Shown: positions 19,063-61,337 of the stretch, piece after piece
Position numbering within the stretch: the first letter of the stretch is position 1
Layout of the letters: every line of letters begins with the position of its first letter
Assembly (NCBI GenBank): GCA_903925955.1
Contig: CAIYHO010000287.1
Location: 1 to 61,339, forward strand
Length of the DNA: 61,339 nucleotides
Source: an uncultured Chloroflexota bacterium
GTDB lineage: Bacteria > Chloroflexota > Limnocylindria > Limnocylindrales > CSP1-4
Direction of reading: 5' to 3'
Notes under the pieces: generated by a model
The model's input: only the letters and a program-made list of their open reading frames with translations
What the model was told of the DNA's origin: nothing
Database searches by the model: none
Made by a program: the position numbers and the translations under genes

Positions 19063-19065
19063 GCC

Positions 19066-24062: not shown

Positions 24063-24166
24063 AACTCTGGGCCCGGGGCACCCAACGTCGCGCTCCGCAC
24101 GAGCCGTCGGTGCCAGACCCACCCACCACCGGGCACGAAACAGTGGCATCAAGGAGTTTGAGTAGG

Positions 24167-24934
24167 ATGGAAAAGCGGTTCGTCGGCAAGGTTGCGCTGG
24201 TGACCGGCGCGACAAGCGGCATCGGACAAGCAACGGCTGTCCGGCTGGCGGCCGAAGGTGCGGTCGTTGCGGTGAACGCGCGACCAACCGGTGACGCCAC
24301 CGAGACGCTCGGCAAGATCAAGGAGGTAGGCGGCGAGGGCTTCGCGGTTGTCGCCGACATGCGCGACCCCGCTCAAGTCGTGGCAATGGTCCAGGAGACG
24401 GCGCAGCGGGGCGGCCGCCTCGACTACCTCGTGTCCAACGCCGCCATCAACCCGTTCAGGCCCTGGGACACAACGACCGTCGAGGATTGGAACGACCTCT
24501 CCGAGACAAACCTACGAGGCACGTGGGTGGTGACAACCGAGGCCGCCAAACAGATGATCAAGGAGGGGCACGGAGGGGCGATCTGCTGCACGAGCTCCAT
24601 CTCGGCGCACGTTGGCTCCCCGTTCCAGACGGCGTATTGCGCCACCAAAGCCGGCATCTCGATGTGGGTCAAGGCGTTCGGCTCCGTGGTGGGCACGCAC
24701 GGGATCCGCGTCAACGCGGTTGAGCCCGGCTGGATCCTCACCAAGATGGCCGCACCGATGTTTGACGACCCCGCCGCGGTGAAGTACTACGAAGAGCGAA
24801 TCGCGCTGCATCGGCCGGGCGAGCCCACCGAACTGGCCGGGGCCATCGCGTTCCTGCTGTCTGACGATGCCAGCTACGTGACCTCCGCCACCCTGCTGGT
24901 GGACGGCGGGTTCATCGTCAACGCCGAGCTGTAG
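24167..24934 (+). CDS. SDR-family oxidoreductase
   Basis: ORF 24110..24934 trimmed to ATG 24167 (AAGGAG RBS at 24151). Motifs: VALVTGATSGIG, NAAI, YCATKAG (YxxxK). Confidence 0.9.
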   Translation: MEKRFVGKVALVTGATSGIGQATAVRLAAEGAVVAVNARPTGDATETLGKIKEVGGEGFAVVADMRDPAQVVAMVQETAQRGGRLDYLVSNAAINPFRPWDTTTVEDWNDLSETNLRGTWVVTTEAAKQMIKEGHGGAICCTSSISAHVGSPFQTAYCATKAGISMWVKAFGSVVGTHGIRVNAVEPGWILTKMAAPMFDDPAAVKYYEERIALHRPGEPTELAGAIAFLLSDDASYVTSATLLVDGGFIVNAEL

Positions 24935-24963
24935 GCCCTACAGGGTCAAGAGGAGGGATCGAC

Positions 24964-25227
24964 GTGGCCGTGCGCGTGGTGATGCCCCAAGCGGGCCAGG
25001 ACCTGGAGACAGGGACGGTCCGGCAGTGGCTCAAGGCCGAGGGTGACGCCGTGATCAAGGGCGAGCCGCTGGTCCAGATCGACACCGAGAAGATCTCTGT
25101 TGAGGTGGAAGCACCGGCGTCCGGGACCCTGCTCCGGATCCTGGTCCCAAACGAGACGGACACCGCAATCCTCTCGACGATCGCCATCATCGGCAACCCC
25201 GGTGAGGACATCTCCGGCATCGAATGA
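24964..25227 (+). CDS. Stand-alone biotinyl/lipoyl-attachment domain protein (87 aa)
   Basis: MAVRVVMPQAGQDLETGTVRQWLKAEGDAVIKGEPLVQIDTEKISVEVEAPASGTLLRI is an E2-type lipoyl domain with a candidate acceptor Lys in DTEK. No E2 catalytic domain follows. Confidence 0.8.
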   Translation: MAVRVVMPQAGQDLETGTVRQWLKAEGDAVIKGEPLVQIDTEKISVEVEAPASGTLLRILVPNETDTAILSTIAIIGNPGEDISGIE

Positions 25228-25290
25228 ACGGTGGACAAGTCCCCCGCCCGCTCGCGCAGGCGGTGGGATTTGCTCCACGGAGCAGCCACA

Positions 25291-26757
25291 ATGAGCCTCA
25301 TCGGTATCGATCTCGGGACCAGCGCGATCAAGGTGGTCGCGTACTCGACCGACGGTACTGTGCTGGCGCAATCCAGCAGTACCGTGCCCGCGTACCGTCC
25401 ACAGCCTGGCCATTGGGAAGTTGACGTCAGCGAGTCTCGGGCGGCCTTCGATGCCGCCCTCTCGGCCGTTGCCGGCGACCCGGCCGTCCGGCAGGACCCA
25501 CCCGTTGCCTTGTCCTTCAGTTCATCTGGCCGCGAGGTCTTCCCGGTGGCGGAGGACGGCACTCCGCTGGGGCGCTGCCTGATGACGCCGGATGTCCGAG
25601 GCGACGACGTGGCCGCCGAGACCGCGGCTCGCCGATCACCCGAGGACTGGTTTCGCCTGACTGGTCACGTGCCACGGCGGATGGACCCAGTCAACCGGGC
25701 CCTCTGGTGGCGCAAGAGCCATCCCGAGGTGGCCGCGAAGGCGCGGTGGTTCATGAACTGGCACGAGTACTACGCTCTGCTGCTCAGCGGACGCCCGGTG
25801 GTGGACTGGAGCGACGCTGGGACTTGGGCAACCTATGACGTGGCCACGGCGGGCTGGTCCGCTGAACGCATTGCCGAGACCGGGATCGACCCGCGCTGGT
25901 TGCCGGAGATCCGACCCAACGGTGACCCGATAGGCCAGATCCTGCCGGAGGCGGCCCGGCGCTATGGCCTGCCCGCTGACATGTTGGTAGTGACCGGCGC
26001 ATACGATGCCTATGCCGCATCGGTTGGCGCTGGCGCGGTGGACTCGGGGTTTGTCGCGCTCGCCTGCGGGACCTGGAACAGCTTCAATACGCCGGTCCTG
26101 CCCGGCTGGCCCGAGGGGCTGGTCAATGACGGGATGAATGTGTTCCCGCACCCAGGTCCCACGGGCTTCGGAATCCTGGTCACGAACCCCAACGGGATGA
26201 GCGTGGTGGATTGGGCTCGCGGCCTTCTGCACCTGTCAATTGAGGACCTGGAGACGGGCCTCGCCGCAGCCGGCCCTGGTCCGGGCTACGTGTTCGCCGA
26301 TGCGGCATTCACGCCCCTACCTCACGTCGTCGCGGACGAGGGCTTCGGCTGCACCTTCTCGGGAGTGACGCTCGCGTCCACCGGCGTCGACATCGTTCGA
26401 TCGCTGCTCGAGGCTATTGCCTGCGAGTTCTCGCTGAGCCTAGACACGCTGCGATCACACGGAGTCGAACCCGTTTTGGTACGGGCGACCGGCGGTGGCT
26501 CGCGGAATGGCTGGTGGCTCCAGTTGATCGCAGACGTGTCTGGCGTCCCCGTTGAAGTGGTGGCGCAGGAACAGCCGGGGGCGTTCGGCGCTGCGATCCT
26601 CGCTGGCGTCGGAGCAGGCGTCTACCCGTCGGTCTCCGAGGCGATCGGGCGCCTTGTGCGGGTTGCGCGCCGGTTCGAGCCAGAGGCAGCGCGGGGACGC
26701 CGCTACGACGGTGTCCGCAGTCGCCTGGCCGAGCGCGGCGGGAGTGGGCGGCCATGA
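25291..26757 (+). CDS. FGGY-family carbohydrate kinase (xylulokinase-like)
   Basis: ORF 25231..26757 trimmed to ATG 25291 (MSLIGIDLGTSAIKVVAYSTDG..). C-terminal GGGSRNGWWLQLIADVSG and GAAILAGVGAG motifs. Confidence 0.85.
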   Translation: MSLIGIDLGTSAIKVVAYSTDGTVLAQSSSTVPAYRPQPGHWEVDVSESRAAFDAALSAVAGDPAVRQDPPVALSFSSSGREVFPVAEDGTPLGRCLMTPDVRGDDVAAETAARRSPEDWFRLTGHVPRRMDPVNRALWWRKSHPEVAAKARWFMNWHEYYALLLSGRPVVDWSDAGTWATYDVATAGWSAERIAETGIDPRWLPEIRPNGDPIGQILPEAARRYGLPADMLVVTGAYDAYAASVGAGAVDSGFVALACGTWNSFNTPVLPGWPEGLVNDGMNVFPHPGPTGFGILVTNPNGMSVVDWARGLLHLSIEDLETGLAAAGPGPGYVFADAAFTPLPHVVADEGFGCTFSGVTLASTGVDIVRSLLEAIACEFSLSLDTLRSHGVEPVLVRATGGGSRNGWWLQLIADVSGVPVEVVAQEQPGAFGAAILAGVGAGVYPSVSEAIGRLVRVARRFEPEAARGRRYDGVRSRLAERGGSGRP

Positions 26758-27839
26758 CCTCCACCACACCGCTGTCGGCGATGTCCGCCTCGATGGCGCT
26801 CTCCACGCCTGCCCTCGTCGTTGACCTTGACGTACTCGACGCGAACGTCGCCGCAATGGCAAGACTCCTCATCGGGACGGGCAAGACCATCCGTCCACAC
26901 ATCAAGACCCACCGGACCCCGGAACTGGCCCGCCGCCAGCTCGGCGGGGCTGCGGTGGGGCTCACGTGCGCCACCGTGGGCGAGGCGGAGGCCATGGTTC
27001 ACGCCGGCTTCACGGACGTGCTCATCGCCAACGAGGTGGTGGACCCGGCCAAGATCGCTCGCCTCGCAGCCCTGGCTCATCGCGCTGATGTCACGGTCGC
27101 CGTTGACGACCCAGAGCCGATCGGCGCCCTGTCGCGGGCGGCAATTGGCGCCGGCGTCACGGTAGGCGTACTCATCGACGTGGACATCCTGTTGCACCGG
27201 TGCGGCGTGGGATCCGCTACCGACGCCGTGGGCCTGGCGCAGGTCATCAGCCGCTCCCCAGGGCTGCACTTGCAGGGGATCATGGGCTATGAGGGGCGCG
27301 TCCGGCTGACCGAGCCACACCGCGACCAGCAGATCTCGGGTGCGTACGCGGCCCTCAGTGCGGCCGCGGCGGCCATCCGCGATGCGGGCTTCAGCGTGGA
27401 GACCGTGTCCGCCGCCGGCACGTCAACCATCGCGGAGGCACTCGCACACCCTGAGATCACGGAGATCCAGGCCGGGGTGTACGCGCTGATGGAGCCGGAG
27501 TTGCTGATCATGGACCTGCCGTTCCGGTGCGCGGTCACGTTGCGCGGCACCGTCATCAGCCGTCACCCCGGGCGGATCGTGCTGGACACCGGCCGCCGCG
27601 TCGTTGGGATGGAGTACGGCCCACCGACCCCCGTTGGGTTTGCCGTCCACGGGATCGCGATGGGCGACGAGCACGCAACGCTCACGATGGATGACCCATT
27701 GCCGGCTCTGGGCAGCCAACTGGACCTGACACCCGGCCAGGTCCGCACAACCTTCAACCTCCACGACCATGTCTGGGTCAGCCGCGGGGGCCACATCGTT
27801 GATTGCTGGCCGATCACCGCACGCGGCAGCTCGCAGTAG
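26754..27839 (+). CDS. DSD1-family fold-type III PLP enzyme (D-serine dehydratase / D-threonine aldolase-like), paralog 1
   Basis: 361 aa. The start overlaps the kinase stop (ATGA). STPALVVDLDVLDANVAAMA..IRPHIKTHRTPELARRQL (PLP lysine in HxKTH), then GYEGR and a C-terminal DEHA motif. Confidence 0.8.
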   Translation: MTSTTPLSAMSASMALSTPALVVDLDVLDANVAAMARLLIGTGKTIRPHIKTHRTPELARRQLGGAAVGLTCATVGEAEAMVHAGFTDVLIANEVVDPAKIARLAALAHRADVTVAVDDPEPIGALSRAAIGAGVTVGVLIDVDILLHRCGVGSATDAVGLAQVISRSPGLHLQGIMGYEGRVRLTEPHRDQQISGAYAALSAAAAAIRDAGFSVETVSAAGTSTIAEALAHPEITEIQAGVYALMEPELLIMDLPFRCAVTLRGTVISRHPGRIVLDTGRRVVGMEYGPPTPVGFAVHGIAMGDEHATLTMDDPLPALGSQLDLTPGQVRTTFNLHDHVWVSRGGHIVDCWPITARGSSQ

Positions 27840-27866
27840 CAACCGCCCGCACAGGAGAGCGCAATC

Positions 27867-29030
27867 ATGCTGGACCCCAAGCCGCTCATAACTGCGGCCC
27901 ACGATCGGGTGCTGGAGCTGTATCGACCGGATCTTGGGCGCCTGCGCGAGGAGCTCGCCACGCCCACCCTGCTCCTCGACTTGGCCGTGTTGCGCGCCAA
28001 TCTCGCGTTCATGGGCGACAACATGCGCGACGTGCCCACAGCCTTGCGCGCGCACGTCAAGGTCCACAAGAGCCCCCATATCGCGCGCCTCCAGATGGAG
28101 TACGGCGCGACCGGCGTAGGCTGTGCGACGGTATGGGAGGCCATCGTGATGGCCCGCGCCGGGATCGACGACGTGTTCGTCATCAACGAGGTCGTTGGTG
28201 CGGAGCGGGTCCGAGCGCTCGCACTTCTGGCTCGTGAGGCAAGCGTCAAGACAGCCGTGGACGACGTCGCGCAGGTGGACGCCCTGTCGCGGGCCGCCGT
28301 CGCCGCGGGCAGCACCATCGGGATCCTCGTGGACGTTGACGAGGGTATGCACCGGTGCGGCGTCGCATCGCCGGATGAGGCGCTCATCGTTGCCCGGCGC
28401 GCGGCCGACGCCCCTGGCCTGCAGTTCCTGGGGCTCACGGGGTACGAGGGGCACTGCTCGCTGGAGTTTGACGCGACCAAGCGGACCGCCATGGCGCGCG
28501 AGGCGATGGCCTACTTCACGGGAGTCGCCGAGCACTTGGCGGCCAACGGGCTCCCAAGCGAGATCGTGACCGCCGCCGGGACAGGGACCTGGGAGGTCAC
28601 CTCGCGCTACCCCGGGATCACCGAGATCCAGCCTGGGTCGTACGCGACGATGGACGGTCACCACCGAGGCCTAGACGCCCGCTTCGGCTGGGCGGTCACG
28701 GTGCTGGCCACGGTGATCAGCCGTCGGTCTGACCGCGTCGTCCTCGACGCTGGCAGCAAGACGGTTGGCGCGTCCCACGGCGTCCTCGCCGCTCCGCCCC
28801 TCGCGACATACCGCTTCGACGAGGAGCACTCGACCTTCCTCGCGGACAGCTCCTGCGCCCTACGAGTGGGCGACACGGTGGAGATCCGCTGCAACTACAC
28901 CCCCTTCGCGATCAGCTACTTCGAGGCGTACCACGTCATCGAAGGCGGGCGTGTGGTGGACATCTGGCCGGTCCTACCGCGCGGGCCGGAGTCGCGGTGG
29001 CTGCTCGACATGCTGGAGCGGGGCGAGTGA
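27867..29030 (+). CDS. DSD1-family fold-type III PLP enzyme, paralog 2
   Basis: 387 aa. Motifs: TPTLLLDLAVLRANLAFM, RAHVKVHKSPHIARLQMEYGATG, GYEGHCS, FDEEHSTF. Confidence 0.8.
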   Translation: MLDPKPLITAAHDRVLELYRPDLGRLREELATPTLLLDLAVLRANLAFMGDNMRDVPTALRAHVKVHKSPHIARLQMEYGATGVGCATVWEAIVMARAGIDDVFVINEVVGAERVRALALLAREASVKTAVDDVAQVDALSRAAVAAGSTIGILVDVDEGMHRCGVASPDEALIVARRAADAPGLQFLGLTGYEGHCSLEFDATKRTAMAREAMAYFTGVAEHLAANGLPSEIVTAAGTGTWEVTSRYPGITEIQPGSYATMDGHHRGLDARFGWAVTVLATVISRRSDRVVLDAGSKTVGASHGVLAAPPLATYRFDEEHSTFLADSSCALRVGDTVEIRCNYTPFAISYFEAYHVIEGGRVVDIWPVLPRGPESRWLLDMLERGE

Positions 29031-29070
29031 GGTCCGGCGCCAGTCCGGCCGCGTGAAGGAGCACCGCAAG

Positions 29071-30258
29071 ATGCGAGATCCGGCGCCGCTCATAGTCGAG
29101 GCGCACAACCGCGCGCGCGACCTGTACGGGTCCGCCATCGGGCGGAGCCGGTTCGACGTCTGCACCCCTGCCCTGGTGGTGGACCTCGGGGTACTGCGCG
29201 GCAACCTCGCGTACATGCAGAGCCGTCTGCCAGCGCTGCACGCGCGCCTGCGCGGCCACGTGAAGAACCACAAGAGCCCGCATATCGCCAGGATGCAGCT
29301 GGAGTACGGCGCGTTTGGCCTGTGCGCGGCGACCGTGTGGGAGGCCATCGTCATGGTCCGCGCGGGCGCTGACGACGTGCTGATCGCCAACCAGCTCGTT
29401 GATCCGGTCAAGCGACGGGCGGCCGCGCTGCTCGCCCGCGAGGCCAACGTCCTCGTAAACGTCGACGACGTGGGCGACGCCCAGGCGCTGTCGGCAGCAG
29501 CCGTCGCCGCAGGCTCCACTATCGGCGTGCTGCTCGAGGTGGACACCGGCATGCACCGCTCGGGCGTGGACAGCGCCGAGGAGGCGGTCAGGGTCGTCAG
29601 CGGGATTGTAAACCTGCCGGGAATACGGTTCGACGGCCTGTCCGGCTACGAGGGCCACTGCTCAATGGAGATGGACCACGAGGCCCGGCACGCCAAGCAA
29701 CAGGCGGCAATCGCCTACTTCGTGGAGGTCGCGGATCAGTTGGCCGAGGCCGGTCTGCCGTGCAGGATCCTGTCAGCGGCCGGCACCGCCACCGCGTTCT
29801 GGACGGGCTCCAACCCGCGCATTACCGAGCTCCAACTGGGCTCGTACGCGGCCATGGACGACTACCACTACCTCATGGAGCCGCGCTTCCGGAAGGCGAC
29901 CTCCGCCGTGGTCACCGTCATCAGCCGGCGCGAGGATCGGCTGGTGCTCAATCTTGGCAAAAAGACATTCGGGTCGGCCGACGTGGGCGGGATACCCGCA
30001 TACCCGCGGATCATGGGTTTCGAGGACCTGCCGCCCTATCGCTTCGACGAGGAGCACGCGACGTATGTCGTGGACGATTCGTGTCCCCTCAAGGTGGGCG
30101 ACGTCGTGGACTTCCACCTGGGCTATACGCCATTCGCAGTCAACTACTTCGACGCGTACCACGTTGTCGAAGACGGCAAGGTGGTGGACATCTGGCCGAT
30201 CATGCCCCGCGGTCCCCTCCACGGTGGACTCTTGGGCGAACTCGAACCACGGATCTGA
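29071..30258 (+). CDS. DSD1-family fold-type III PLP enzyme, paralog 3
   Basis: ORF 28765..30258 trimmed to ATG 29071 (GAAGGAG RBS). Motifs: TPALVVDLGVLRGNLAYM, RGHVKNHKSPHIARMQLEYGAFG, GYEGHCS, FDEEHATY. By eye closest to paralog 2. Confidence 0.8.
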   Translation: MRDPAPLIVEAHNRARDLYGSAIGRSRFDVCTPALVVDLGVLRGNLAYMQSRLPALHARLRGHVKNHKSPHIARMQLEYGAFGLCAATVWEAIVMVRAGADDVLIANQLVDPVKRRAAALLAREANVLVNVDDVGDAQALSAAAVAAGSTIGVLLEVDTGMHRSGVDSAEEAVRVVSGIVNLPGIRFDGLSGYEGHCSMEMDHEARHAKQQAAIAYFVEVADQLAEAGLPCRILSAAGTATAFWTGSNPRITELQLGSYAAMDDYHYLMEPRFRKATSAVVTVISRREDRLVLNLGKKTFGSADVGGIPAYPRIMGFEDLPPYRFDEEHATYVVDDSCPLKVGDVVDFHLGYTPFAVNYFDAYHVVEDGKVVDIWPIMPRGPLHGGLLGELEPRI

Positions 30259-43160: not shown

Positions 43161-44239
43161 TCAGCAGATGCGGGGCAGCTGCTCCCCCACAAGCATGTCC
43201 ACGATCCGCTCACTGCCGACGATCGTGCGGATGGTGACCATGCCGGGATGATCTGCCACGACCTCGCCAATCCGCGCGGCGCCGTCCCCCTCGGGCAGCG
43301 CGTGCATGGCTGCCAGGACGGCATCCGCGGACGCCGCGGGCACAATCGCCACAAGCTTGCCCTCGTTGGCCACGTGGAGCGGATCCAGCCCCAGGAACTC
43401 GCACGCGGCCCGCACAGCCCCCGGGATGGGGATGGACGGCTCGTCAAGGACCATCCCCACGCGGGAGGACTGGGCGATCTCGTTGAGCGCGGACGACAGG
43501 CCGCCACGCGTGGGGTCGCGCAGAACGTGGATGTCGGGCTCAACGGCGGTCATCGCCGCCACCAACCCGGCAAGCGACTGCGTGTCGGACTGGATCTCCA
43601 CTTCAAACTCCAGCCCCTCGCGCACGCTCATGATCGCCACGCCGTGCAGACCGATGGGCCCCGACAGGATCACCACGTCGCCGGGCTGGGCCCGGTCCGC
43701 CGCCGGCGCCACGCCGTCTCGGATGAGGCCGATGCCCGCCGTGTTGACGAAAAGCTTGTCCGCGGCCCCGCGACCCACCACCTTGGTGTCGCCGGTGACA
43801 ATCTTGGCGCCGGCCTTCACTGCGGCTGCAGCCGCGGACATCGTGATGATCCGCAGCTCCTCGAGCGGCAGCCCTCCTCGATGACATACGCCAGCGAGAT
43901 GGCCAACGGGGTGGCCCCCATCATGGCAAGGTCGTTGATGGTGCCGTTCACCGCAAGCTCGCCGATGTCGCCGCCCGGAAACCGGATGGGCGACACGACA
44001 TACGAGTCCGTGGTGAACGCGAGGCGCGCACCGGCAACCTCCACCACGGCGGCATCGTTGAGCACGCCCCCGGGTGACGCCGAGGCAATGGCTGGCCCAA
44101 TCAGGTCGCGCATGAGCGCAGCCGAGAGCTGTCCGCCTGAGCCGTGGCCCAGGATGACGCGCTGGTCCTCGGGGATGGGGGCGGGGCAGTACACCCCGTC
44201 CGCGTCAATCGTGACGATCTTCTGGCCTTCGGTGGTCAT
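43161..44239 (-). pseudogene. hypE: hypE (hydrogenase maturation carbamoyl dehydratase) interrupted by a 1-nt frameshift near 43871
   Basis: The N-terminal part is ORF 43817..44239 (..GHGSGG..LAISLAYVIEEG then garbage). The C-terminal part is ORF 43161..43841 (..VTGDTKVV..PRIC). Reading GGC(C)TG with one extra C restores ..VIEEGLPLEELRIITMSAAAA.. across the junction. Confidence 0.8.
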
Positions 44240-49921: not shown

Positions 49922-51124
49922 CTACGGTAGCGCGGCTGCGGCCTGTTCGGCCAGTGTTGTGTCAGCGGTAGTGATAACTAGTACGTGGCCATCCGCCGTC
50001 AAGACGTAGTCTCGTTTCCCTTCGTCACCGTAGTCAAATTGGGCGAAGGAGTGTCCCCCGAGCGTGACATCGGTTGTTGCCACGCCTGAGCCGGAGGCGG
50101 CCAGCCACGAATCGAGCACAAGTTGGCGCATCGTGGCAATGGCCATGCCCTTCACCTCAACCACAAGGATGGTGATGTCGGAGGCACCGGTCTCGTCGTA
50201 GGCCTGCGCGATGCGCAACGCATCCGCTGTCAGATTGACGTGACGAAGCGCGGCCAAGATTGCACGGCTCCCCTGGTCCTCGCCAAGGATGTCCGGGCCA
50301 AGCGCGCTCTGGATGGTCAGTGTGACGGCGCCCACCTTTGCGGGCAGCAACCGCTCAAGGTCGCCGGCGGGGGGCGTACCGCTTGGGACAGCGTCACTCG
50401 CCCCGGGATCCAAGGAGTCCGGCGGGAACGTGTCCTCTGCCGACGGGAGGCCATCGCTGCCGACAGGCAGCACCGCCGTAGGATTGGCCACGTCTGTGCC
50501 GCCCTGTCCGCCGAGCGCGAGATCAAAGGCTGAGGCCACCTGGTCCACTTCGTCCTGGCTCACGGTGCCAGAGAAGGCGAGGTACACAACCAGACTGCCG
50601 CGGCGGATGTTGGCGAAGAATGAGCCGGAGCTGTCCTCGCTGCTCCACGCCTGGTCGCCAAGATCGGGGCGATCGGAGACGGCCTGGCCTGCGTTGGTTG
50701 CAGCGAGACGCGACCGCGTGACGGAGTCAGCCGCACCCTCGGGGTAACACGTGATGGTTGCCAGGGACATCGCCTGTGTGGTGGAGCTGTCAACCGGCTC
50801 CGGACCCAGCAATGAGATGGATCGACGGCCCACGTCGTAGGTGGAGGCACGGAGGGACCAATCGCCCGGCAACTGGTCCTCGGCGGGGGTCACATTCCAG
50901 GCTGCGGTCTGGCAGCTTGACGCACGCGTGACCATGGCGACGGTCTGCCACGTGCCAAGACCCAGGGCAACCAGGGCGATCACCAGCGCAAAGACGGCGA
51001 TCCTGCGCGTGGAGCGCACATCGGCCGCAATCAGCGCCCGCTCATCGGAAGGCCGAATACGCGGCTGCACTGGGCCCGTGGGGGGTGCTGTCTGGAGGTT
51101 TCGTGGGGCGGTCATGATCAACAA
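49922..51124 (-). CDS. Hypothetical single-pass membrane protein with a large extracytoplasmic region
   Basis: 400-aa ORF (TTG 51124, or ATG 51115). One TM segment, IAVFALVIALVALGLGTWQTVAMV. Two globular-looking halves joined by a Pro/Asp/Ser-rich linker. I recognise no family. It ends 24 nt before response regulator 2. Confidence 0.6.
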   Translation of the reverse strand: MLIMTAPRNLQTAPPTGPVQPRIRPSDERALIAADVRSTRRIAVFALVIALVALGLGTWQTVAMVTRASSCQTAAWNVTPAEDQLPGDWSLRASTYDVGRRSISLLGPEPVDSSTTQAMSLATITCYPEGAADSVTRSRLAATNAGQAVSDRPDLGDQAWSSEDSSGSFFANIRRGSLVVYLAFSGTVSQDEVDQVASAFDLALGGQGGTDVANPTAVLPVGSDGLPSAEDTFPPDSLDPGASDAVPSGTPPAGDLERLLPAKVGAVTLTIQSALGPDILGEDQGSRAILAALRHVNLTADALRIAQAYDETGASDITILVVEVKGMAIATMRQLVLDSWLAASGSGVATTDVTLGGHSFAQFDYGDEGKRDYVLTADGHVLVITTADTTLAEQAAAALP

Positions 51125-51175: not shown

Positions 51176-51946
51176 ATGATGTTCCCCGATCGGCAGCTGA
51201 AGCTCTTGGCCATCGCCTGCGACGTCGTGGCGAGACCCGTCTACCTGTGCGCCGCGCGTTCACCACACGTGGTGGACATCGCGCTCTTTGGGCGCGGTCT
51301 CCACAGCGAACCGCCGCTCCTGCGCCAGCGCCTCCAGAGGGCAATCGACGAGGCGCCCGCTGGCTATGACGCCATCGTGCTTGGCTACGGGCTGTGCGGG
51401 GGCGCCACCGCCGGCATTGAGGCGCGCGCCATCCCTGTGGTCCTACCCCGCGCCCATGACTGCATCACGCTGTTCTTGGGGGCCCGCGAACGCTACGAGG
51501 CCCAGGTCCGCGACACGCCTGCAACGTACTGGTATGTGGCGGACCAGCTGGAGCGCCGAGACGGCTACCGACCGGGCGGGGGGATTGGCCTGGGCGTTGG
51601 AGGCGACTCCGACGACGACATCGAGGCGGTCCGCGCCGAATACGTGGAGAAGTACGGCGAGGACAACGCGGACTACCTGATGGAGGTCATGGGCGCCTGG
51701 AAGACCCACTACCAGCGCGCCGCCTTTGTGGGCATGGGCGTTGGCGACGAGACTGCATCACGAGCCTTTGCGCAGGAGCAGGCCGATCGCCGCGGCTGGG
51801 AGTTTGAGGCCATGGAGGGCAGCATGGTGCTGCTCCGACGGCTGATTGACGCGGAGTGGGACAACGACGTCCTTGTGCTGCAGCCCGGCGAGCGGCTCGC
51901 GATGAGCTACGACGAGGACGTTGTCAAGGCGGTCCCGGCCACCTGA
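51176..51946 (+). CDS. DUF1638-family protein (unknown function; a family typically linked to corrinoid methyltransferase genes)
   Basis: ORF 51134..51946 trimmed to ATG 51176 (MMFPDRQLKLLAIACDV..). GLHSEPPLLRQRLQRAIDEAPAGYDAIVLGYGLCGG..PRAHDCITLFLG fits my memory of DUF1638. Confidence 0.6.
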   Translation: MMFPDRQLKLLAIACDVVARPVYLCAARSPHVVDIALFGRGLHSEPPLLRQRLQRAIDEAPAGYDAIVLGYGLCGGATAGIEARAIPVVLPRAHDCITLFLGARERYEAQVRDTPATYWYVADQLERRDGYRPGGGIGLGVGGDSDDDIEAVRAEYVEKYGEDNADYLMEVMGAWKTHYQRAAFVGMGVGDETASRAFAQEQADRRGWEFEAMEGSMVLLRRLIDAEWDNDVLVLQPGERLAMSYDEDVVKAVPAT

Positions 51947-51974
51947 CGGCAAGCCGGCAAAGCTGCGCCCGCGG

Positions 51975-53012
51975 CTACTCCTCGGCGAGTCGCCCCTCGC
52001 GGAACGCCATCACGTAGTCCATACCGCCAAGATCCCGGCCCTCAAGCACGTCCGCCGCCAGACCAAACGAGTCCACGCTGCGCGATGCGCTGAAGACGCG
52101 GGCAAGGTCCGACGCGACGGGGTCGATGATCCCGCTGTCGATGCCGGCCTCGGCGGCAAGGTCAATGAAGGCGTCATTGATGAACTTGCGGCCGGGCATG
52201 CCAAACGAGACGTTGGAGAGGCCGCCCGTGAGGTGGATGTCGTCGCCGTACTCGATGCGCAGCTGGCGGGCCGCCTCAAGCACATGCGCGGGGGCGTCGG
52301 GCGCCGCCGCAACCGGCAGCACCAGCGGATCGACGTAGAGGAAATCGGCCGGGATCAGGTGGGCAAGCGCCAGCTCCACAATGGCGATGGCGTTGTGAAT
52401 GCGGTCGTCCACGCCTGACGGCATCCCGCTGGCGCCGCTTGCAGCGAGCACCACGGCGCAGTTGGATGCCGCCGCGATCTCCAGGACCTCAGGGCGCTCC
52501 AGGGACGCGGAGTTGAGCAGGAGCGTGCCGCGCAACTGGCGGGAGGCAGAGACGCCAGCGGCAAGCACTGCCACATCGGACGAGTCAATTGCCACAGGGA
52601 TCTTGGCCGTTGCCTCAACCGTGCTGACAAGCCAGGCCATGGCCCGGGCGCGCGTGTCGGAATCGTGCGAGATCTCGTCCGCATTCAGATCCAGCCAGTC
52701 GGCGCCTGCCGCCTCTTGGCGCGCCGCCAGCACGCGGATGTACGCGGCCGCCGTTGCGGCGTGCTCGCCGCCATCCATGCCCCAGCGGACCGCACTCGCG
52801 ACATGCTTGATCCGGCCCTTGGCAAAGTCCGAGGCCGCAGCCAGCACGGGGTGGACCGGCAGGACGAGGCGCTCCCCGTCAAGCTCAAACCCAATGCCGA
52901 TGGTGCCGTCCGGCAGTTCAACGGCGTGCTTGCCCGTGCGCTTGAGCACGCGGGTGGCGTGGATGTTCTCGCCGATGATCCGGAACGGGGTGCCGTTGCG
53001 GTCGAGCCTCAC
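51975..53012 (-). CDS. Pterin-binding methyltransferase (methyl-corrinoid:tetrahydrofolate methyltransferase, MtgA/MeTr-like)
   Basis: ORF 51975..53330 trimmed to GTG 53012, which overlaps the upstream stop (GTGA). FRIIGENIHATR, DWLDLNAD, AIDSS, LLNSAS, GLSNVSFG: the dihydropteroate-synthase-like pterin-binding barrel. Confidence 0.8.
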   Translation of the reverse strand: MRLDRNGTPFRIIGENIHATRVLKRTGKHAVELPDGTIGIGFELDGERLVLPVHPVLAAASDFAKGRIKHVASAVRWGMDGGEHAATAAAYIRVLAARQEAAGADWLDLNADEISHDSDTRARAMAWLVSTVEATAKIPVAIDSSDVAVLAAGVSASRQLRGTLLLNSASLERPEVLEIAAASNCAVVLAASGASGMPSGVDDRIHNAIAIVELALAHLIPADFLYVDPLVLPVAAAPDAPAHVLEAARQLRIEYGDDIHLTGGLSNVSFGMPGRKFINDAFIDLAAEAGIDSGIIDPVASDLARVFSASRSVDSFGLAADVLEGRDLGGMDYVMAFREGRLAEE

Positions 53013-54670
53013 GAGTGGATGTCCTTTCGCGTCTGGTTGGGAGTTGCGGTCTCGGCGGCACCGCTTGTCGCGGCACCGCGTGTCGCGGCACCGCGTGTCG
53101 CGGCATGGTCTCGGCCCAGGAAGGTATTGGCCCAGGCGCTCGTGCGCTGAAGCGTGTTGTCGGTCACCACGGGCTCGCGGTTCAGCATCGTGCGCTCTTC
53201 GCCGTACGGCTTGAGCCGCGCGTACGCGTCTGCCCAGACGCACGTGTGCCCGGGGACCTCGCACTGGCCGTCGGTGGCGCCGCCGCACGGGCCGTTGCGC
53301 TGGTTCTTCTGGCAGTGGCTCTCGGGGCACAGGTACGCGATGTCGGGCAGCGAGCAGTCACCGCAGTCGCGGCAGTCAAACATCGGGATCTTGACCGCGT
53401 TCTCCAGCACGTGGAGCGGCTTCTCGATGTGGGCCTTCTCAACGGTGGCGTAGAGCTTGGACCAGACCTTGAAGCCCGCAGACCCGGGCTCAAACACCCG
53501 GGTGTGCAGGGTGCGGTTGAACTTGTAGAACGCGGAGACCTTGCCGCGCGCCGCGTGTCGGGCGGCGTCGGTGAGGCTGGCGGCATATGCGGCCGACAGC
53601 TCGTCGGTGGCAAGCCCCGCGCCGTCGCTCTCAAACGGCTGGAAGGCACCGGGCTGGCCAAAGCTCACGTCCGCAACAAGCGAGCGCCAGTCATCGGCCG
53701 GATGCGCATCGGCCATCTCCAGCACGCGGGCAAGTTCCAAGGCATCACGGTGGCCCGAGATGTAGATGCCCTTGTAGCCGAGGCCGCGCGAGACCACCAG
53801 CTGCTTGGCGGCAAACTCAAGGAAGAACGCGCGGCCCTTGTCGGGCGCCTTGGCCTGCTCTTCGGCAACCGCGAGCAGCGCATCGGGGACCACGCAGCCC
53901 GGGACCTTGCCGGCGTTGAACGCGCGGGCCACCGGGGCGGAGAGGATGTACGCGTTGGCGATGACGGGAATGGCGAGCCCCTCGCGGCGCATCCAGCGCA
54001 GGAGCTGGTCTTGGCGGTGCGCGTCGTAGCCCACCTGGGTGATCGCGTAGTCCGCACCGGACCGCGCCTTGAGTTCAAGCTTCAGGAACTGCGGGATCAG
54101 GTCGCGCTCAAGCCGCTTGAACGGGTCGATGGCGCAGCCGAGGTAGAAGCCCTCCACGGCCTCGGGGGTGCCATCGGTGGCCGCCTTGGCGACCGCCTCG
54201 CCGCCCATCTGGCGCAGCAGCGCAAGCAGCGCCACGGAGTCAATGTCAAAGACCGGACGCGGGCCGCCGCCATGACCGGGCGCGGGATAGTCGCCAGTGA
54301 GCGCGAGGACCGTGGTGAGCCCGCGCGACAGCAGGTTCCAGCCAAGGCTCTGCATGCCGTTGCGGTTGCGGTCGCGGCAGGCCACGTGGACGATCGTGTC
54401 GTGGCCAAGGGTCTTGGCCTGCTCGCCCAGCACTTCTGGCGGCAGCTTCGCAAAACCGCCCGCGTTGTCCGTGATGGAGATGGACGTGATCCGCGGGTTG
54501 CCCGCAAGATCGGCGGCCATCTTCATGGGCTTTGTGCCCTTGGCGTCCTGCAGGGCGCCGGCCCACGGCACCAGCTCCACAACGGTGGCAAAGCCCGCCG
54601 GGTCCGCGAGCGCACGGCGGAGCGCACCGGGGCCGGGAACGGTGGGGGTTGTGGCGCTTGCGGATGACAT
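53009..54670 (-). CDS. Methylenetetrahydrofolate reductase fused to a Cys-rich MTHFR C-terminal (MetV-like) domain
   Basis: 553 aa. N-terminal MTHFR barrel (VVELVPW.., ISITDNAGG, VHVACRDRN, VLALTGDYP). C-terminal FDCRDCGDCSLPDIAYLCPESHCQKNQRNGPCGGATDGQCEVPGHTCVW (9 Cys). Confidence 0.8.
   Translation of the reverse strand: MSSASATTPTVPGPGALRRALADPAGFATVVELVPWAGALQDAKGTKPMKMAADLAGNPRITSISITDNAGGFAKLPPEVLGEQAKTLGHDTIVHVACRDRNRNGMQSLGWNLLSRGLTTVLALTGDYPAPGHGGGPRPVFDIDSVALLALLRQMGGEAVAKAATDGTPEAVEGFYLGCAIDPFKRLERDLIPQFLKLELKARSGADYAITQVGYDAHRQDQLLRWMRREGLAIPVIANAYILSAPVARAFNAGKVPGCVVPDALLAVAEEQAKAPDKGRAFFLEFAAKQLVVSRGLGYKGIYISGHRDALELARVLEMADAHPADDWRSLVADVSFGQPGAFQPFESDGAGLATDELSAAYAASLTDAARHAARGKVSAFYKFNRTLHTRVFEPGSAGFKVWSKLYATVEKAHIEKPLHVLENAVKIPMFDCRDCGDCSLPDIAYLCPESHCQKNQRNGPCGGATDGQCEVPGHTCVWADAYARLKPYGEERTMLNREPVVTDNTLQRTSAWANTFLGRDHAATRGAATRGAATSGAAETATPNQTRKDIHS
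53057..53105. repeat. 15-bp in-frame tandem repeat (3 full units plus a 4-nt start of a fourth) in the 3' tail of the MetF-MetV gene
   Basis: GGCACCGCTTGTCGC / GGCACCGCGTGTCGC / GGCACCGCGTGTCGC / GGCA.. It encodes ATRGA-ATRGA-ATSGA on the minus strand. Confidence 0.85.
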
Positions 54671-54679
54671 CTGAGGTCC

Positions 54680-56305
54680 TCAGGCGGTGATGGGTTCGAA
54701 GAGACAGCCGTCGGTGAAGAGGTCGAAGAAATCGGGTTCGGTTTCCAGTTCAACGTGCTCGATGCGCCCCACAAGCTCCTGGAGCTCGGTGCGGCGACGG
54801 CGGGAGAGCAGGAGCGCGCGAGCCCCGGCGATTGAAGCGTTGCCCGCCTTGATGATGCCCCCTCGGGGTGCATCAATGAGCAGGCCGATGGCGATGGCGG
54901 CCTCCACGTCAAGCGCGTTGGCAAAGCCGCCGGCGAGGTAGACCCGATCAACCTGGTCAACACGCAGGCCCAGACGCCGCAGGAGCACACGCTGGCCAAC
55001 GGCCGTGGCAGCCTTGGCAACCGCGAGGTGGCCCACATCGGCCCGCGAGAGCGTGATCCGCGGTGCGGCGGTCACCACCATCTCGGGGATCCCGGGGCCA
55101 AAGCCGCCACGGTTGCTCATGATGTCGGCGCCGCGCGCCTGAGCCAGGAGCTCCACCAGACCCGAGCCGCAGATTCCCTCGGGCTGCGCGTCGCCGATCA
55201 CCTTGACCACCCAGCGGTCCCCTGCCCAGCGAGCGCCCTCGATGGCGCCATCGGCACCCGGCATGCCGTACCGGACGCCGCCGCCTTCAAACGCGGGGCC
55301 AGCCGGGCTGGACGCCGCCACAACGCGCGTCCCGTCGCCCGCGATGATCTCGCTGTTGGTCCCGATGTCCACCAGCAGGAACGAGCCGCCGCGCGCAACG
55401 GCCTCAACAGCAATCAGGTCTGCCGCCGCATCAGCGCCAACAGGGCAGGCGATGAGCGGGGCTCCCCAGACGCTGGCCTGCGGGTTGAGCAGGAGCCCCG
55501 CATCGTGCGCGCGGCGCGTCACGGCGGTGGTGGCGGCAGTCCCCTCCCGCTGGGCAGTCTCGGTGACGGAGCGGTACGGCAACCGGCCAAGCGGCGACAC
55601 GTCCAGCCCCAGCGCCAGGTCGCGCATCGTGGGGTTGCCCACGATGACCGCGTCCACCAGACGGCGGCGCTCGATACCGGTCTCGCGGCACAGGCGCTTG
55701 AGTTCATGGTTCAGCGCCCGCCGCAGGGCCGCACGCAGCTCGCCCGGGACCTCCTCCTCGTACGAGATCCGGGTCATGACGTCGCTGCCGCCAAAGCGCT
55801 GCGGGTTCTCGATGGCGCTGACCGCCAGCAGCGCACCGGTCTGCAGGTCCACCAGCTCCACAACGATCGTGGTGGTGCCGATGTCAAACGCGACGCCAAC
55901 CGGCACTCCGCCAATCACCCCAAGGTCCGCGCCGTCATCGGCTCTCGCCCGTCCGTCCTCCCCGACGGTGACCAGGGGGTCAAGCGCTGACGGCGCGGCG
56001 CCGTCGCCATCGGGCGCCAGCAGGATGCGCAGCCGGCGCCGGAGGATCACAAACTCAACGTCGCGCTCAGCCCGCTCCACGTGCGCCTGACAGGCAAGGC
56101 GGAACGCGGGCCCAAGGAAGCCCTCCTCGGCGGTCCGCGGCGACAGCTGGTCCGCACCTGCACGCACCTCCACAACGCACTCATGGCAGCGCCCGGTGCG
56201 GCGGCAGGACGCGGGCACCACCGAGCCCAGCTCCGCCGCGGCGTCGTACAGGGAGTGGCCGGGCGCAAGCGGTTTGCGCTCGGACCCGTGGACAAGATTG
56301 GGCAT
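54680..56305 (-). CDS. RACo-type reductive activator of corrinoid proteins ([2Fe-2S] ferredoxin domain plus ASKHA ATPase, COG3894/DUF4445-like)
   Basis: 541 aa. N-terminal ferredoxin-like SCRRTGRCHEC..C, then VAFDIGTTTIVVELVD (ASKHA phosphate-1), VDIGTNSEI, LAGGFAN. Confidence 0.8.
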   Translation of the reverse strand: MPNLVHGSERKPLAPGHSLYDAAAELGSVVPASCRRTGRCHECVVEVRAGADQLSPRTAEEGFLGPAFRLACQAHVERAERDVEFVILRRRLRILLAPDGDGAAPSALDPLVTVGEDGRARADDGADLGVIGGVPVGVAFDIGTTTIVVELVDLQTGALLAVSAIENPQRFGGSDVMTRISYEEEVPGELRAALRRALNHELKRLCRETGIERRRLVDAVIVGNPTMRDLALGLDVSPLGRLPYRSVTETAQREGTAATTAVTRRAHDAGLLLNPQASVWGAPLIACPVGADAAADLIAVEAVARGGSFLLVDIGTNSEIIAGDGTRVVAASSPAGPAFEGGGVRYGMPGADGAIEGARWAGDRWVVKVIGDAQPEGICGSGLVELLAQARGADIMSNRGGFGPGIPEMVVTAAPRITLSRADVGHLAVAKAATAVGQRVLLRRLGLRVDQVDRVYLAGGFANALDVEAAIAIGLLIDAPRGGIIKAGNASIAGARALLLSRRRRTELQELVGRIEHVELETEPDFFDLFTDGCLFEPITA

Positions 56306-56378
56306 CGGCGTGGAGTGTCCTCGACGTCCTCAATCAGCGCAAGGCCGGACGGCCCAAACGACCGAACGAACGCAACCA

Positions 56379-56394
56379 ATGTAATCGATTGCAT
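56379..56394. promoter_or_regulatory. AT-rich near-palindrome ATGTAATCGATTGCAT in the divergent activator / corrinoid-protein control region
   Basis: Seven of eight arm positions are symmetric around the central CG. It is the only AT-rich element in the 188-bp divergent intergenic region 56306-56493. Confidence 0.35.
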
Positions 56395-56493
56395 GCGGAA
56401 CGGGGCGGCAGGGGCGCCTGACGGGTGCGACGATCCTGTCCAACACCAGAGGCGTCCCCACGCCAGTCCCCATTCACAGGAGGTTTCCCGCTC

Positions 56494-57144
56494 ATGCATG
56501 AGGAGCTCTTCGAGGCGATGCGCCAGTCCGTCATCGACGGCGACACGGCTGCAGCCTCGTCCCTTGCCGAACAGGTACTTGCAACTGGCGTCCCGCCGAT
56601 CGACGCCATCGACCTTGGGTTCGTGCCTGGGCTCTCACATGTGGGCAAGCTGTTTGGCGAGGGCGAGCTGTTCCTGCCCGACATGATGCTGGCAGCCCGG
56701 GCGATGCAGAAGGCGCTTGCGATCCTTGAGCCGGAGCTCAAGCGCCTCGCCACCGCGCGCGTGGTGGTTGGCCGCGTGGTCATGGGCACCGTCAAGGGCG
56801 ACATCCACGAGATTGGCAAGAACCTCGTGGGCATGATGCTTGCCACGTCCGGATTTGAGGTCACGGACCTTGGCGTGGACGTGGCGCCGGAGCGCTTTGT
56901 TGAGGCTGCCCGGGAGCACAACGCGGACATCGTGGGCGTGTCGGCGCTGCTGACCACCACCATGGCCGGCCAGCGGACCGTCGTGGAGGCGCTGGCCGCC
57001 GCCGGACTGCGCCCGCAGACTCGGGTCATCGTGGGCGGAGCGCCCGCGAGCGCTGCATGGGCCGCCGAGATTGGCGCCGACGGGTACAGCGAGGACGCCA
57101 TTGGCGCCGTTGCCCTGGCACGCCAGCTGATGGGGGCTGCGTGA
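56494..57144 (+). CDS. Corrinoid (cobalamin-binding) protein, MtgC/MttC-like
   Basis: ORF 56425..57144 trimmed to ATG 56494 (CAGGAGG RBS). B12-binding cap helix bundle, then the Rossmann domain with GDIHEIG (DxHxxG), SALL (SxL) and VGGAP (GG). Confidence 0.9.
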   Translation: MHEELFEAMRQSVIDGDTAAASSLAEQVLATGVPPIDAIDLGFVPGLSHVGKLFGEGELFLPDMMLAARAMQKALAILEPELKRLATARVVVGRVVMGTVKGDIHEIGKNLVGMMLATSGFEVTDLGVDVAPERFVEAAREHNADIVGVSALLTTTMAGQRTVVEALAAAGLRPQTRVIVGGAPASAAWAAEIGADGYSEDAIGAVALARQLMGAA

Positions 57145-58598
57145 TGCGACCCCGCTTCGAGCTCCTGGAGCCCGCGCTGATCGACCGGATCGTTGATGAG
57201 GCGCTCCAGCTCCTGATGGAGCCCGGCATCAAGGTTGAGGAGCCCGAGGCCGTCGCGCTGCTGCGCGGTGCCGGTGCGGTGATCGACGGCGATCGGGCGC
57301 GCATCCCCGAGGCTGCGGTCCGCCGCGCGCTGGACACGGTTCCCCGCCAGTTCTCGCTGTACAACCGGGCTGGCGTTGAGGCCGTGCGATACGGCTCGGG
57401 CAACGTGCACTTTGACCCCGGGTCCTCGGGTGTGTCGGTGCTTGATCCCGAGACGCTTGAGGCGCGCCACTCCCAGGCCGCGGACCTCCAGCGGATTGTC
57501 CGCGTGGCAGACTCGCTTGGCTCGTACGACGCGGTGTCCACGTCCGTCGTCTGCCACGACATCCCAACGGAAATCGGCGATCTGTACCGGCTGTTCGTCT
57601 GCCTGATGAACTCCGGCAAGCCCATCGTGACGGGCGCCTTCTCGCCGCGCGGCTCCGGGATCATGCTGGACCTGCTGGCGATCGATGCCGGCGGACACGC
57701 CGCACTGGCCGAGAAGCCGCGCGCGGTGTTTGACGTCTGCCCGTCGCCGCCGCTCACGTGGTCCGAGTTTGCCTGCCGCAACATCATCGACCTTGGCCGT
57801 GCGCATGTGCCGTCCGAGATGGTGTCGATGCCGCTGGCGGGCGTGGCTGCGCCCATCACGCTCGTGGCGTGCATCGTCCAGCATGCGGCAGAGTGTCTGG
57901 CCGGCATCGTCCTGAACCAGCTGGCCCAGCCCGGCGCACCAATCGTCTGGGGCGGCGCACCGGCCATCGTGGACATGCGGACGGGCTCCACGCCGATGGG
58001 CGCGATTGAGACCGCCATGATCGACGCGGGCTACGCGGCCGTTGGCAAGTCCCTTGGGCTGCCGACGCACGCGTATCTGGGCGCCACGGACTCCAAGGTG
58101 ATTGACGCGCAGGCCGGTCTTGAGACCGGGATGACCGCGCTTGTTGGCGCGCTTGCGGGGATCGACATGATCTCCGGCGCCGGCATGCTGGACTTCCTCC
58201 TGGCGCAGAGCCCGGAGAAGCTGGTCATTGACGCTGAGGCCATCGGCATGGCGCAGCGCCTGCTCCGCGGGATCAGCACGCCGCAGACCACGCTGGCCAC
58301 GGGCTCCTTTGCGGCGGCCGGTCTTGAGGGCCGCTTCCTTGAGCTGCCCGAGACGCGGGCGCTGTTCAAGCACGAGCAGTTCCTGCCCACCAAGATCATC
58401 GACCGCACGTCGCGCCGGGCCTGGCTTGACGCGGGCGGGCTTGATGCGTTTGGGCGAGCCCGTGTCCGCGTGGACGAGTTGGTCGCGAGGCCGGTCTCAG
58501 CACCTGACCCGGAGATCGCCGCTGCCCTGGCCGAATGCGTCCGGTCCGCGGGTGCGCCATTCGGACTGTCGGCCGATGGAGTGCTGCCGGGGGTGTGA
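57144..58598 (+). CDS. MttB-superfamily (trimethylamine methyltransferase-like, COG5598) substrate:corrinoid methyltransferase, non-pyrrolysine type
   Basis: ORF 57057..58598 trimmed to ATG 57144, which overlaps the corrinoid-protein stop (TGATG). 484 aa. LEPALIDRIVDEALQLLMEPGIKVE.., ..DVCPSPPLTWSE.., ..PLAGVAAPITL... Continuous frame with no in-frame TAG. Confidence 0.9.
   Translation: MRPRFELLEPALIDRIVDEALQLLMEPGIKVEEPEAVALLRGAGAVIDGDRARIPEAAVRRALDTVPRQFSLYNRAGVEAVRYGSGNVHFDPGSSGVSVLDPETLEARHSQAADLQRIVRVADSLGSYDAVSTSVVCHDIPTEIGDLYRLFVCLMNSGKPIVTGAFSPRGSGIMLDLLAIDAGGHAALAEKPRAVFDVCPSPPLTWSEFACRNIIDLGRAHVPSEMVSMPLAGVAAPITLVACIVQHAAECLAGIVLNQLAQPGAPIVWGGAPAIVDMRTGSTPMGAIETAMIDAGYAAVGKSLGLPTHAYLGATDSKVIDAQAGLETGMTALVGALAGIDMISGAGMLDFLLAQSPEKLVIDAEAIGMAQRLLRGISTPQTTLATGSFAAAGLEGRFLELPETRALFKHEQFLPTKIIDRTSRRAWLDAGGLDAFGRARVRVDELVARPVSAPDPEIAAALAECVRSAGAPFGLSADGVLPGV

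Positions 58599-59016: not shown

Positions 59017-61337
<2,321 letters not shown>

Follow-up and report, generated by a model that had tools for sequence, protein, structure and literature searches.

On a 61,339-bp contig from an uncultured Chloroflexota bacterium (Ca. Limnocylindrales), analysed here in full and referred to as the window, six contiguous genes probably encode a three-component corrinoid-dependent methyl-transfer module that uses folate as its methyl sink and a methyl donor that is neither trimethylamine (TMA) nor glycine betaine. They comprise an MttB-superfamily methyltransferase (MT1), a corrinoid protein, a pterin-binding methyl-corrinoid:tetrahydrofolate (THF) methyltransferase (MT2), a methylene-THF reductase (MetF), a RACo-type reductive activase and a DUF1638 protein. 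The genes are intact and under strong purifying selection, their arrangement recurs far beyond chance, and MT1 carries other residues at the positions that define the TMA and glycine-betaine enzymes. Systems of this kind are already known, including in aerobes and as co-located clusters. New here are a Chloroflexota instance in which all six genes are contiguous, an MT1 from an uncharacterised subfamily without the acid-binding arginine, and an array of MT1 paralogues (clades A, B and C) together with its reduction in the lineage of the window.

To our knowledge, substrates have been assigned to only six MttB-superfamily proteins out of thousands. The locus offers a minimal, fully linked and constrained test set (MT1, corrinoid protein, MT2, activase, DUF1638 and MetF) for a large Arg-less subfamily. 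If identified, the donor would define a new methyl-turnover route and a new cobalamin demand in the communities concerned, and it could explain the methyl donor of MttB-containing split methionine synthases. At present, the result is a well-supported annotation and not a new kind of system.

A contiguous and conserved locus

The GC content of the window is 0.64-0.74, and raw lists of open reading frames (ORFs) are full of spurious frames because of it. Coding frames were chosen by third-position GC (GC3), one per stretch, and then assigned with Pfam. All six genes of the self-contained route that had been proposed from the sequence were confirmed in this way (Table 1), with domain E-values between 1e-17 and 1e-82, and an independent gene caller gave the same six products on a sister contig (270, 345, 548, 541, 216 and 484 aa). 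They form three transcription units: cop-mttB (+), raco-metFV-mt2 (-) and duf1638 (+). The corrinoid-protein stop codon overlaps the MttB ATG in TGATG, the MTHFR stop overlaps the GTG start of MT2 in GTGA, and 9 nt separate the RACo stop from the MetF start; both of the overlaps that the original prediction had read as translational coupling were verified, as were all the corrinoid-protein and RACo motifs that it listed.

Between the window and two diverged sister contigs (L001 and L002), dN/dS is 0.04-0.11 for all six genes. Gene order and orientation are repeated in about 45 related Chloroflexota loci. An AGGAGG ribosome-binding site precedes the corrinoid-protein ATG at 56494. The divergent intergenic region contains a palindrome of 14 bp at 56380, which was considered as an operator and dropped because it is not conserved, being absent from all relatives. 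Rfam at the gathering threshold found no riboswitch or other RNA family anywhere in the window, and promoter and terminator scans of this high-GC DNA were uninformative.

Table 1. Features of the methyl-transfer locus, in window coordinates
Feature	Position	Strand	Basis
DUF1638 protein	51176-51946 (alternative GTG start 51134)	+	PF07796, 125 bits
MT2, pterin-binding methyl-corrinoid:THF methyltransferase, 345 aa	51975-53012	-	PF00809 (Pterin_bind), 63 bits
MetF (methylene-THF reductase) fused to Cys-rich MetV-like C-terminal domain, 553 aa	53009-54670	-	Pfam MTHFR, 51 bits; PF12225, 81 bits
RACo-type ATP-dependent reductive activase	54680-56305	-	Fer2 + Raco_middle (123 bits) + RACo_C_ter (205 bits)
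Divergent intergenic region between RACo and corrinoid protein, 188 bp	56306-56493		sequence
Corrinoid (cobalamin-binding) protein, 216 aa	56494-57144	+	B12-binding_2 + B12-binding (cap and Rossmann domains)
MT1, non-pyrrolysine MttB-superfamily methyltransferase (clade B), 484 aa	57144-58598	+	Pfam MTTB, 277 bits

Relatives of MT1 were sought in one genome per species; 471 were found, and the best 80 were used for locus comparisons. The closest are 98% and 95% identical to the window protein, and all 80 lie in Chloroflexota metagenome-assembled genomes (MAGs; Ca. Limnocylindrales, 'Chloroflexia', Anaerolineae and Thermoflexales), several of them on megabase contigs or closed chromosomes. Synteny with these MAGs reaches past the cluster to genes for HypF, an enoyl-CoA hydratase (ECH) and tyrosine phenol-lyase, and the phenol-lyase of the window falls in a 90%-identity cluster that NCBI names Ca. 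Limnocylindrales. The host, first taken for a high-GC actinobacterium, is instead placed in Chloroflexota (Ca. Limnocylindrales) by the 80 of 80 best relatives and the phenol-lyase cluster. Limnocylindria and related Chloroflexota are represented here by MAGs from many separate metagenome projects, and a survey has already mentioned mttB-like genes in MAGs of Ca. Limnocylindria (PMC11264602).

Specificity of the methyltransferase

The Pfam MTTB match of MT1 (PF06253/COG5598) is full-length, covering residues 32-495 of the long ORF, and its score compares with a cutoff of 25 bits. By phmmer, Methanosarcina barkeri MttB (3e-57, 198 bits) is the best match by sequence in the Protein Data Bank (PDB), and Desulfitobacterium hafniense MtgB scores 1e-51. 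A structural model of MT1 (AF2; pLDDT 79, pTM 0.83) aligned by Foldseek with 7xcl, 9yce and 2qne at TM 0.87-0.89 over about 480 columns, pointing to a TIM-barrel fold with a C-terminal extension, like that of 7xcl and 2qne.

The reading frame contains no in-frame TAG and no internal stop, and the position of pyrrolysine (Pyl334 of MttB) is occupied by a GCC codon (Ala314), in agreement with the original description of a non-pyrrolysine enzyme. Tyr364 and the Gly110-Thr111 cis-peptide, which activate pyrrolysine in TMA-MttB (PMC9842639), correspond to Ser344 and Ser94-Ser95 in the window protein, and the score against the TIGR02369 equivalog model (341.9 bits) is below the cutoff of 525. At 58083-58182 (+), Rfam returned a sub-threshold match (29 bits versus a gathering threshold of 38) to PYLIS_3, the element for insertion of pyrrolysine in mttB, with the UAG of the model aligned to the GCC codon of Ala314. 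Many of its predicted pairs are non-canonical, and the match reflects coding-sequence homology.

For glycine betaine, the comparison is with MtgB, the ligands of which (Y97, R312, H348 and F356) are established by structure and mutagenesis, with R312L and H348E abolishing activity (PMC13080624). At these positions the window protein has S94, H309, S344 and L352, and none of the four varies among 65 clade-B sequences. The window protein is 28% identical to MtgB and 25% identical to Sinorhizobium meliloti 4yyc, which retains the Y/R/H of the MtgB ligand set. An equivalent of R312 is conserved in all characterised enzymes for acidic quaternary amines (MtcB, MtpB, MtyB and MthB; PMC13080624), and every known substrate of MttB-family enzymes without pyrrolysine is acidic (PMC12155760); at this acid-binding position the window protein has His309. 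Its NCBIfam matches include no model for these four enzymes.

On these residues, MT1 is predicted to be neither a TMA methyltransferase nor MtgB. The earlier view that its substrate is unknown is upheld: direct residue tests place the protein outside both specificities, and it lacks the arginine conserved in the enzymes for acidic quaternary amines. Membership of a clade of known specificity had been named as the outcome that would overturn this view, but the TMA-MttB catalytic residues and the MtgB ligand residues are all absent. In the relatives, no neighbouring gene is consistently linked to MT1, and therefore no substrate call is possible from gene context. It had also been pointed out that no BCCT or ABC betaine transporter is adjacent; Pfam and family-model searches found none across the entire 61-kb window.

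Two other leads to a substrate were discarded. An enoyl-CoA hydratase in the window raised the possibility of a CaiD-like carnitine pathway; its best NCBIfam matches are generic enoyl-CoA hydratases, all below cutoff, there is a 4-nt overlap between its gene and the tyrosine phenol-lyase gene, and relatives carry it beside liu genes. The chloromethane enzyme CdmB, considered as an MttB relative, was set aside as irrelevant, its fold being UroD-like.

Corrinoid protein, methyl acceptor and activation

The corrinoid protein has a cap domain and the base-off/His-on motif DxHxxG...SxL...GG, with DIHEIG at residue 103, SAL at 150 and GG at 181. Among NCBIfam models it comes closest to MtgC (219 bits) and pyl_corrinoid (204 bits), without reaching the cutoff of either.

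MT2 scores 181 bits against NCBIfam PRK07535, below the cutoff of 259 bits, and its best PDB matches are 4o0q (3e-30), which we take to be the D. hafniense O-demethylase MT2, and MeTr 2yci (1.5e-26). The protein (51975-53012, -) also has about 65 extra residues before the core that aligns with MeTr and 4o0q (query residue 91 corresponds to MeTr residue 26). With a FRIIGENI motif at the start of the protein (residues 10-17), the extra length points to an insertion following the first strand and not to an N-terminal extension. MetF matches the MTHFR structures 3apt and 1v93 at about 2e-9, and its C-terminal domain has eight cysteines between residues 433 and 477.

The activase conforms in sequence to the RACo architecture of an N-terminal [2Fe-2S] ferredoxin, a middle domain and a putative ASKHA ATPase, with Cys34/40/43/72 and two DIGT(T/N)(T/S) ASKHA phosphate-binding motifs. 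Its presumed partner, DUF1638, has been tied to B12 reactivation (Price 2018, PMC5764234; PMC12478193). Orthologues of DUF1638 are 247-249 aa long, and the ATG at 51176 is therefore favoured as its start. The gene has a dN/dS of 0.045, and across 30 orthologues residues C15, C25, C74, H94, D95 and C96 are invariant (motifs GYGLCGG and PRAHDC), which suggests a metal or redox site. No PDB sequence homologue was found; the AF2 model has a pLDDT of 62, Foldseek gave nothing with E below 0.08, and hhalign against MetH-activation-like proteins showed no relation. DUF1638 is a genetically implicated, mechanistically unexplained partner of RamA/RACo-type corrinoid activases.

Reduction of an array of paralogues

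Three deep clades of MttB paralogues, A, B and C, occur in the 80 loci. Their mutual identity is 28-31%, no closer than that of any of them to MtgB or MttB, and at the specificity positions every clade shows a set of invariant residues of its own. The usual order in relatives is DUF1638> MT2< MetF< RACo< [C>] CoP> A> B>, where CoP is the corrinoid protein. Clade A lies immediately 5' of B in 75 of the 80 loci, including distant Anaerolineae and Thermoflexales loci that have no accessory genes nearby, and C is found in 38 of the 80 (arrays of two or three paralogues around one corrinoid-protein gene, ordered C-CoP-A-B, are seen among loci L003-L080, for example at L042:7713-11449 and L004:6321-11449).

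The window, L001 and L002 are exceptions. In these three, the corrinoid-protein stop is fused to the start codon of B (GCGTGATGCG) and the N terminus of B is unchanged: a clean deletion of about 1.7 kb removed A together with both spacers. In this A-less lineage the dN/dS of MttB is 0.04-0.05, all frames are intact and the clade-B invariant residues are kept. Because the retained genes are strongly constrained, the version with a single MT1 appears functional, unless A is encoded elsewhere. The single-MttB layout is derived, a pared-down version of an ancestral Chloroflexota array with two or three paralogues; of as many as three MT1 enzymes specific for their substrates, the window retains B alone.

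In 11-13 relatives, although not in the window, a UroD-family gene (MtaA/MtbA-like fold) lies directly upstream of DUF1638 (loci L012, L016, L019, L022, L027, L030, L031, L034, L047, L049 and L050, at about 1-2000). It represents a further variable methyltransferase on the same core.

A subfamily found in split methionine synthase operons

When 1.84 billion cluster representatives were searched exhaustively with HMMER, 6,200 MttB family members were identified. The clade of the window is a single representative at 61% identity, beyond which there is a continuum at 40-49% identity and 360-437 bits. These scores far exceed those to MttB or MtgB, and MT1 is therefore a member of a large subfamily without a characterised member. 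Most of the continuum shares S94, H or Q at 309, and S344.

We viewed the gene contexts of six of the nearest non-Chloroflexota relatives (40-47% identity), for which five contigs were informative. Four of the six (P0298, P0300, P0306 and P0307) adjoin a homocysteine S-methyltransferase gene; in three of these four there is, in addition, a protein of roughly 215 aa that is related to the MetH activation domain and carries an invariant R-x-S-P-G-Y motif, and two also have a corrinoid-protein gene. P0305 adjoins a corrinoid protein and a UroD-family methyltransferase. The contig of P0301 is 2.9 kb long and shows a lysine-2,3-aminomutase-like neighbour only. In the split MetH-like operons (L084:1455-5111, L086:3969-7642, L087:615-2999 and L089:2-3049), the MttB homologue occupies the place of the folate module. 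Williams et al. (2022) described such an MttB-containing split MetH-like cluster with 'an unknown methyl donor', and the homologues concerned fall in an uncharacterised clade that is closer to MttB than to MtgB (PMC9324843). The window protein is likewise nearer to MttB.

Proposed mechanism and alternative readings

We propose that the methylated compound bound by MT1 is most likely an N-methyl ammonium other than TMA and glycine betaine, and that MT1 would give one methyl group of this compound to Co(I) of the corrinoid protein. MT2 would then pass the methyl group from methyl-Co(III) to THF, and the MetF/MetV reductase, working in the oxidative direction, would convert methyl-THF to methylene-THF for oxidation or assimilation. 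Cobalt oxidised by accident to Co(II) would be restored to Co(I) by RACo and DUF1638 at the expense of ATP and a low-potential electron.

Several points weigh against this scheme. All of its steps are predicted from homology, the oxidative direction of MetF included, and the function of clade B is read from genes alone. The active-site loops of the MT1 model (314-323 and 344-352) fall below pLDDT 50 and are its least confident part. The MtpB, MtcB, MtyB and MthB specificities are presumptively excluded by the arginine criterion alone, as stated in PMC13080624. Clade B may normally depend on A, which precedes it in 75 of 80 loci and is missing here. Finally, the 61-kb contig holds no transporter, no one-carbon genes of the folD/fhs/purU type and no genes for cobalamin synthesis or uptake.

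The strongest alternative, which is compatible with the methyl-transfer scheme, is that the corrinoid protein, MT2, RACo and DUF1638 also, or mainly, form the core of a split cobalamin-dependent methionine synthase: MT2 would run from methyl-THF to the corrinoid protein, a homocysteine methyltransferase would be encoded elsewhere and MttB would be an auxiliary methyl input. MtgC and MtgD have such dual functions in Ruegeria pomeroyi (PMC12478193), RamA-like and DUF1638 mutants of Phaeobacter inhibens are methionine auxotrophs (PMC5764234), and the nearest non-Chloroflexota relatives of MT1 adjoin genes for homocysteine S-methyltransferase, corrinoid and MetH-activation-domain proteins (the PMC9324843 type). 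However, no PF02574 (S-methyl_trans) gene is present in the 61-kb window or in the loci of about 20 kb around the relatives, and a tight operon that includes MetF is just as fitting for the catabolic oxidation of methyl groups. We regard this role as possible but not probable.

We also entertain, as an unlikely extension, that clades A, B and C, which lack the acid-binding arginine, demethylate non-acidic amines or demethylate an N-trimethyl compound stepwise (C, A, then B) without pyrrolysine, with a donor that is perhaps shared with the folate-independent, B12-dependent split methionine synthases.

Demethylation of glycine betaine by an MtgB-type enzyme would make the locus the Chloroflexota counterpart of the MtgBCD pathway of Ruegeria and Sinorhizobium. 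The component set is as described for that pathway (PMC12478193), the corrinoid protein has MtgC as its nearest NCBIfam model, and glycine betaine is the commonest known substrate of non-pyrrolysine MttB homologues. We nevertheless judge it very unlikely, given that none of the four validated MtgB ligands is present, that identity to MtgB and 4yyc is low, and that the window has no betaine transporter and no dimethylglycine or sarcosine genes.

Less probable still is a decaying remnant, in which B became inactive on its own once A was lost, for example because the two form a heteromer or act in an obligate sequence. MttB-family proteins are dimers in which each C terminus contributes to the active site of the partner (PMC13080624), and the adjacency of A and B has been kept across several Chloroflexota classes. 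Yet the A-less layout is common to three diverged genomes, the remaining MttB is constrained and intact, and the deletion created a translationally coupled junction between the corrinoid protein and MttB. That MT1 is a genuine TMA methyltransferase, as automated annotation names it (JGI labels on cluster members read 'trimethylamine--corrinoid protein Co-methyltransferase') and as its best PDB match might imply, is scarcely credible with alanine in place of pyrrolysine, Tyr364 and Gly110-Thr111 not conserved, an equivalog score of 342 bits against a cutoff of 525 and no tRNA of any kind in the window.

Comparison with known systems

The closest parallel by components is the system of the aerobe R. 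pomeroyi, in which MetF2, DUF1638 and a RamA-like activase accompany MtgB, MtgC and MtgD; clusters with these genes co-located occur in other Proteobacteria, and the suggestion that such systems have been studied only in strict anaerobes is out of date (PMC12478193). MetF2, the protein most induced in R. pomeroyi on methylated osmolytes, acts as a methyl-THF oxidiser (PMC12478193), and in Phaeobacter, genetic evidence shows that methionine synthesis through B12 requires the RamA-like protein and DUF1638 as a pair (PMC5764234). The Ruegeria, Phaeobacter and Sinorhizobium MtgBCD system has the same six kinds of component as the window and delivers methyl groups into the folate pool. All three members of the accessory set (MetF paralogue, RamA-like activase and DUF1638; PMC12478193) are present and adjacent in the window, where MetF, compared with MetF2 by component kind only, carries a fused MetV-like domain. 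The differences from the Proteobacterial system are the Chloroflexota host, an MT1 without the glycine-betaine ligands and a corrinoid protein nearest to the MtgC and pyl_corrinoid models, whereas the MtgC of PMC12478193 was reported to be related to CmuA. An MtgE (PF02574) module, absent from the 61 kb of the window, is also unlinked in R. pomeroyi.

The D. hafniense system (MtgB-MtgC-MtgA; 2qne/9yce) shares with the window a non-pyrrolysine MT1 of MttB fold, a corrinoid protein, a pterin-type MT2 and an ATP-dependent activase, but all four MtgB ligands are replaced in the window protein at 28% identity, and D. hafniense is a strict anaerobe with a Wood-Ljungdahl pathway. In Eubacterium limosum, MtpB, MtcB and MtyB work with MtqC/MtqA, alongside MthB/MthC/MthA and RamQ, so that one core serves interchangeable MT1s, paralleling the A/B/C complement of Chloroflexota. 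The E. limosum MT1s take acidic quaternary amines and conserve the R312 equivalent (PMC13080624), in contrast to the histidine of the window protein.

The MttB/MttC system of M. barkeri (7xcl/7xcn; PMC9842639) is the best match in both sequence and fold (198 bits, TM 0.88), and its MttB and the window protein share the short form of the loop near 344, without the one-residue insertion of MtgB. The window protein differs in having no pyrrolysine, Tyr364 or Gly110-Thr111 and in scoring below the equivalog cutoff. The PMC9324843 type of cluster houses the nearest non-Chloroflexota relatives, which have S94, H/Q309 and S344 in common with the window MttB. In the window, however, the acceptor is a pterin-binding MT2 with MetF instead of a homocysteine methyltransferase, and the activase is RACo with DUF1638 instead of a MetH-type AdoMet activation domain.

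In the cmu chloromethane pathway of aerobic methylotrophs, CmuA and CmuB act with MetF2, FolD and PurU: corrinoid-dependent methyl transfer to THF is followed by oxidation through a dedicated MetF. CmuA is not of the MttB family, and neither folD nor purU is linked to the locus in the window.

Neighbouring genes

Divergent from DUF1638, at 49922-51124 (-), is a gene for a protein of 400 aa that matches nothing in Pfam or NCBIfam and has a single transmembrane helix, at the N terminus. About 10 relatives have the gene in the same place (36-52% identity), and two LuxR-type response regulators follow it in the window. Elsewhere among the relatives, the neighbours include genes of leucine catabolism (MCC alpha/beta, HMG-CoA lyase and ECH), tyrosine phenol-lyase with an MFS transporter, HtrA and a lysine-aminomutase-like protein; an MFS_2 transporter or a DAO oxidoreductase occurs in distant loci.

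The tyrosine phenol-lyase of the window (59017-61220, -) scores 756 bits against TIGR02618 (cutoff 721) and has a dN/dS of 0.017; its gene overlaps that of the downstream enoyl-CoA hydratase by 4 nt. In about 28 relatives the lyase, with 82-99% conservation, is found 0.3-10 kb downstream of the cluster, frequently paired with an MFS transporter, and no functional link was seen between it and the methyltransferase cluster.

Further upstream, hypE (43161-44239, -) appears to be split into two overlapping ORFs (AIRS, 43817-44239; AIRS_C, 43161-43841) within an otherwise intact hypF-hypC-hypD-hypE hydrogenase-maturation row; a frameshift, a pseudogene or an error of assembly may account for this. 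The stretch at 22542-30258 (+) encodes an amino-acid permease, an SDR protein and a small biotin/lipoyl protein, then three tandem paralogues that combine Ala_racemase_N with a D-serine-dehydratase-like domain (D-threonine aldolase/DSD1-like). At 14912-21094 (-) are genes for a RuBisCO-large-chain-like protein (120 bits, probably RuBisCO-like), a DUF4432 protein, a cyclase-family protein, an SDR protein and the alpha and beta subunits of a 2-oxoacid dehydrogenase E1.

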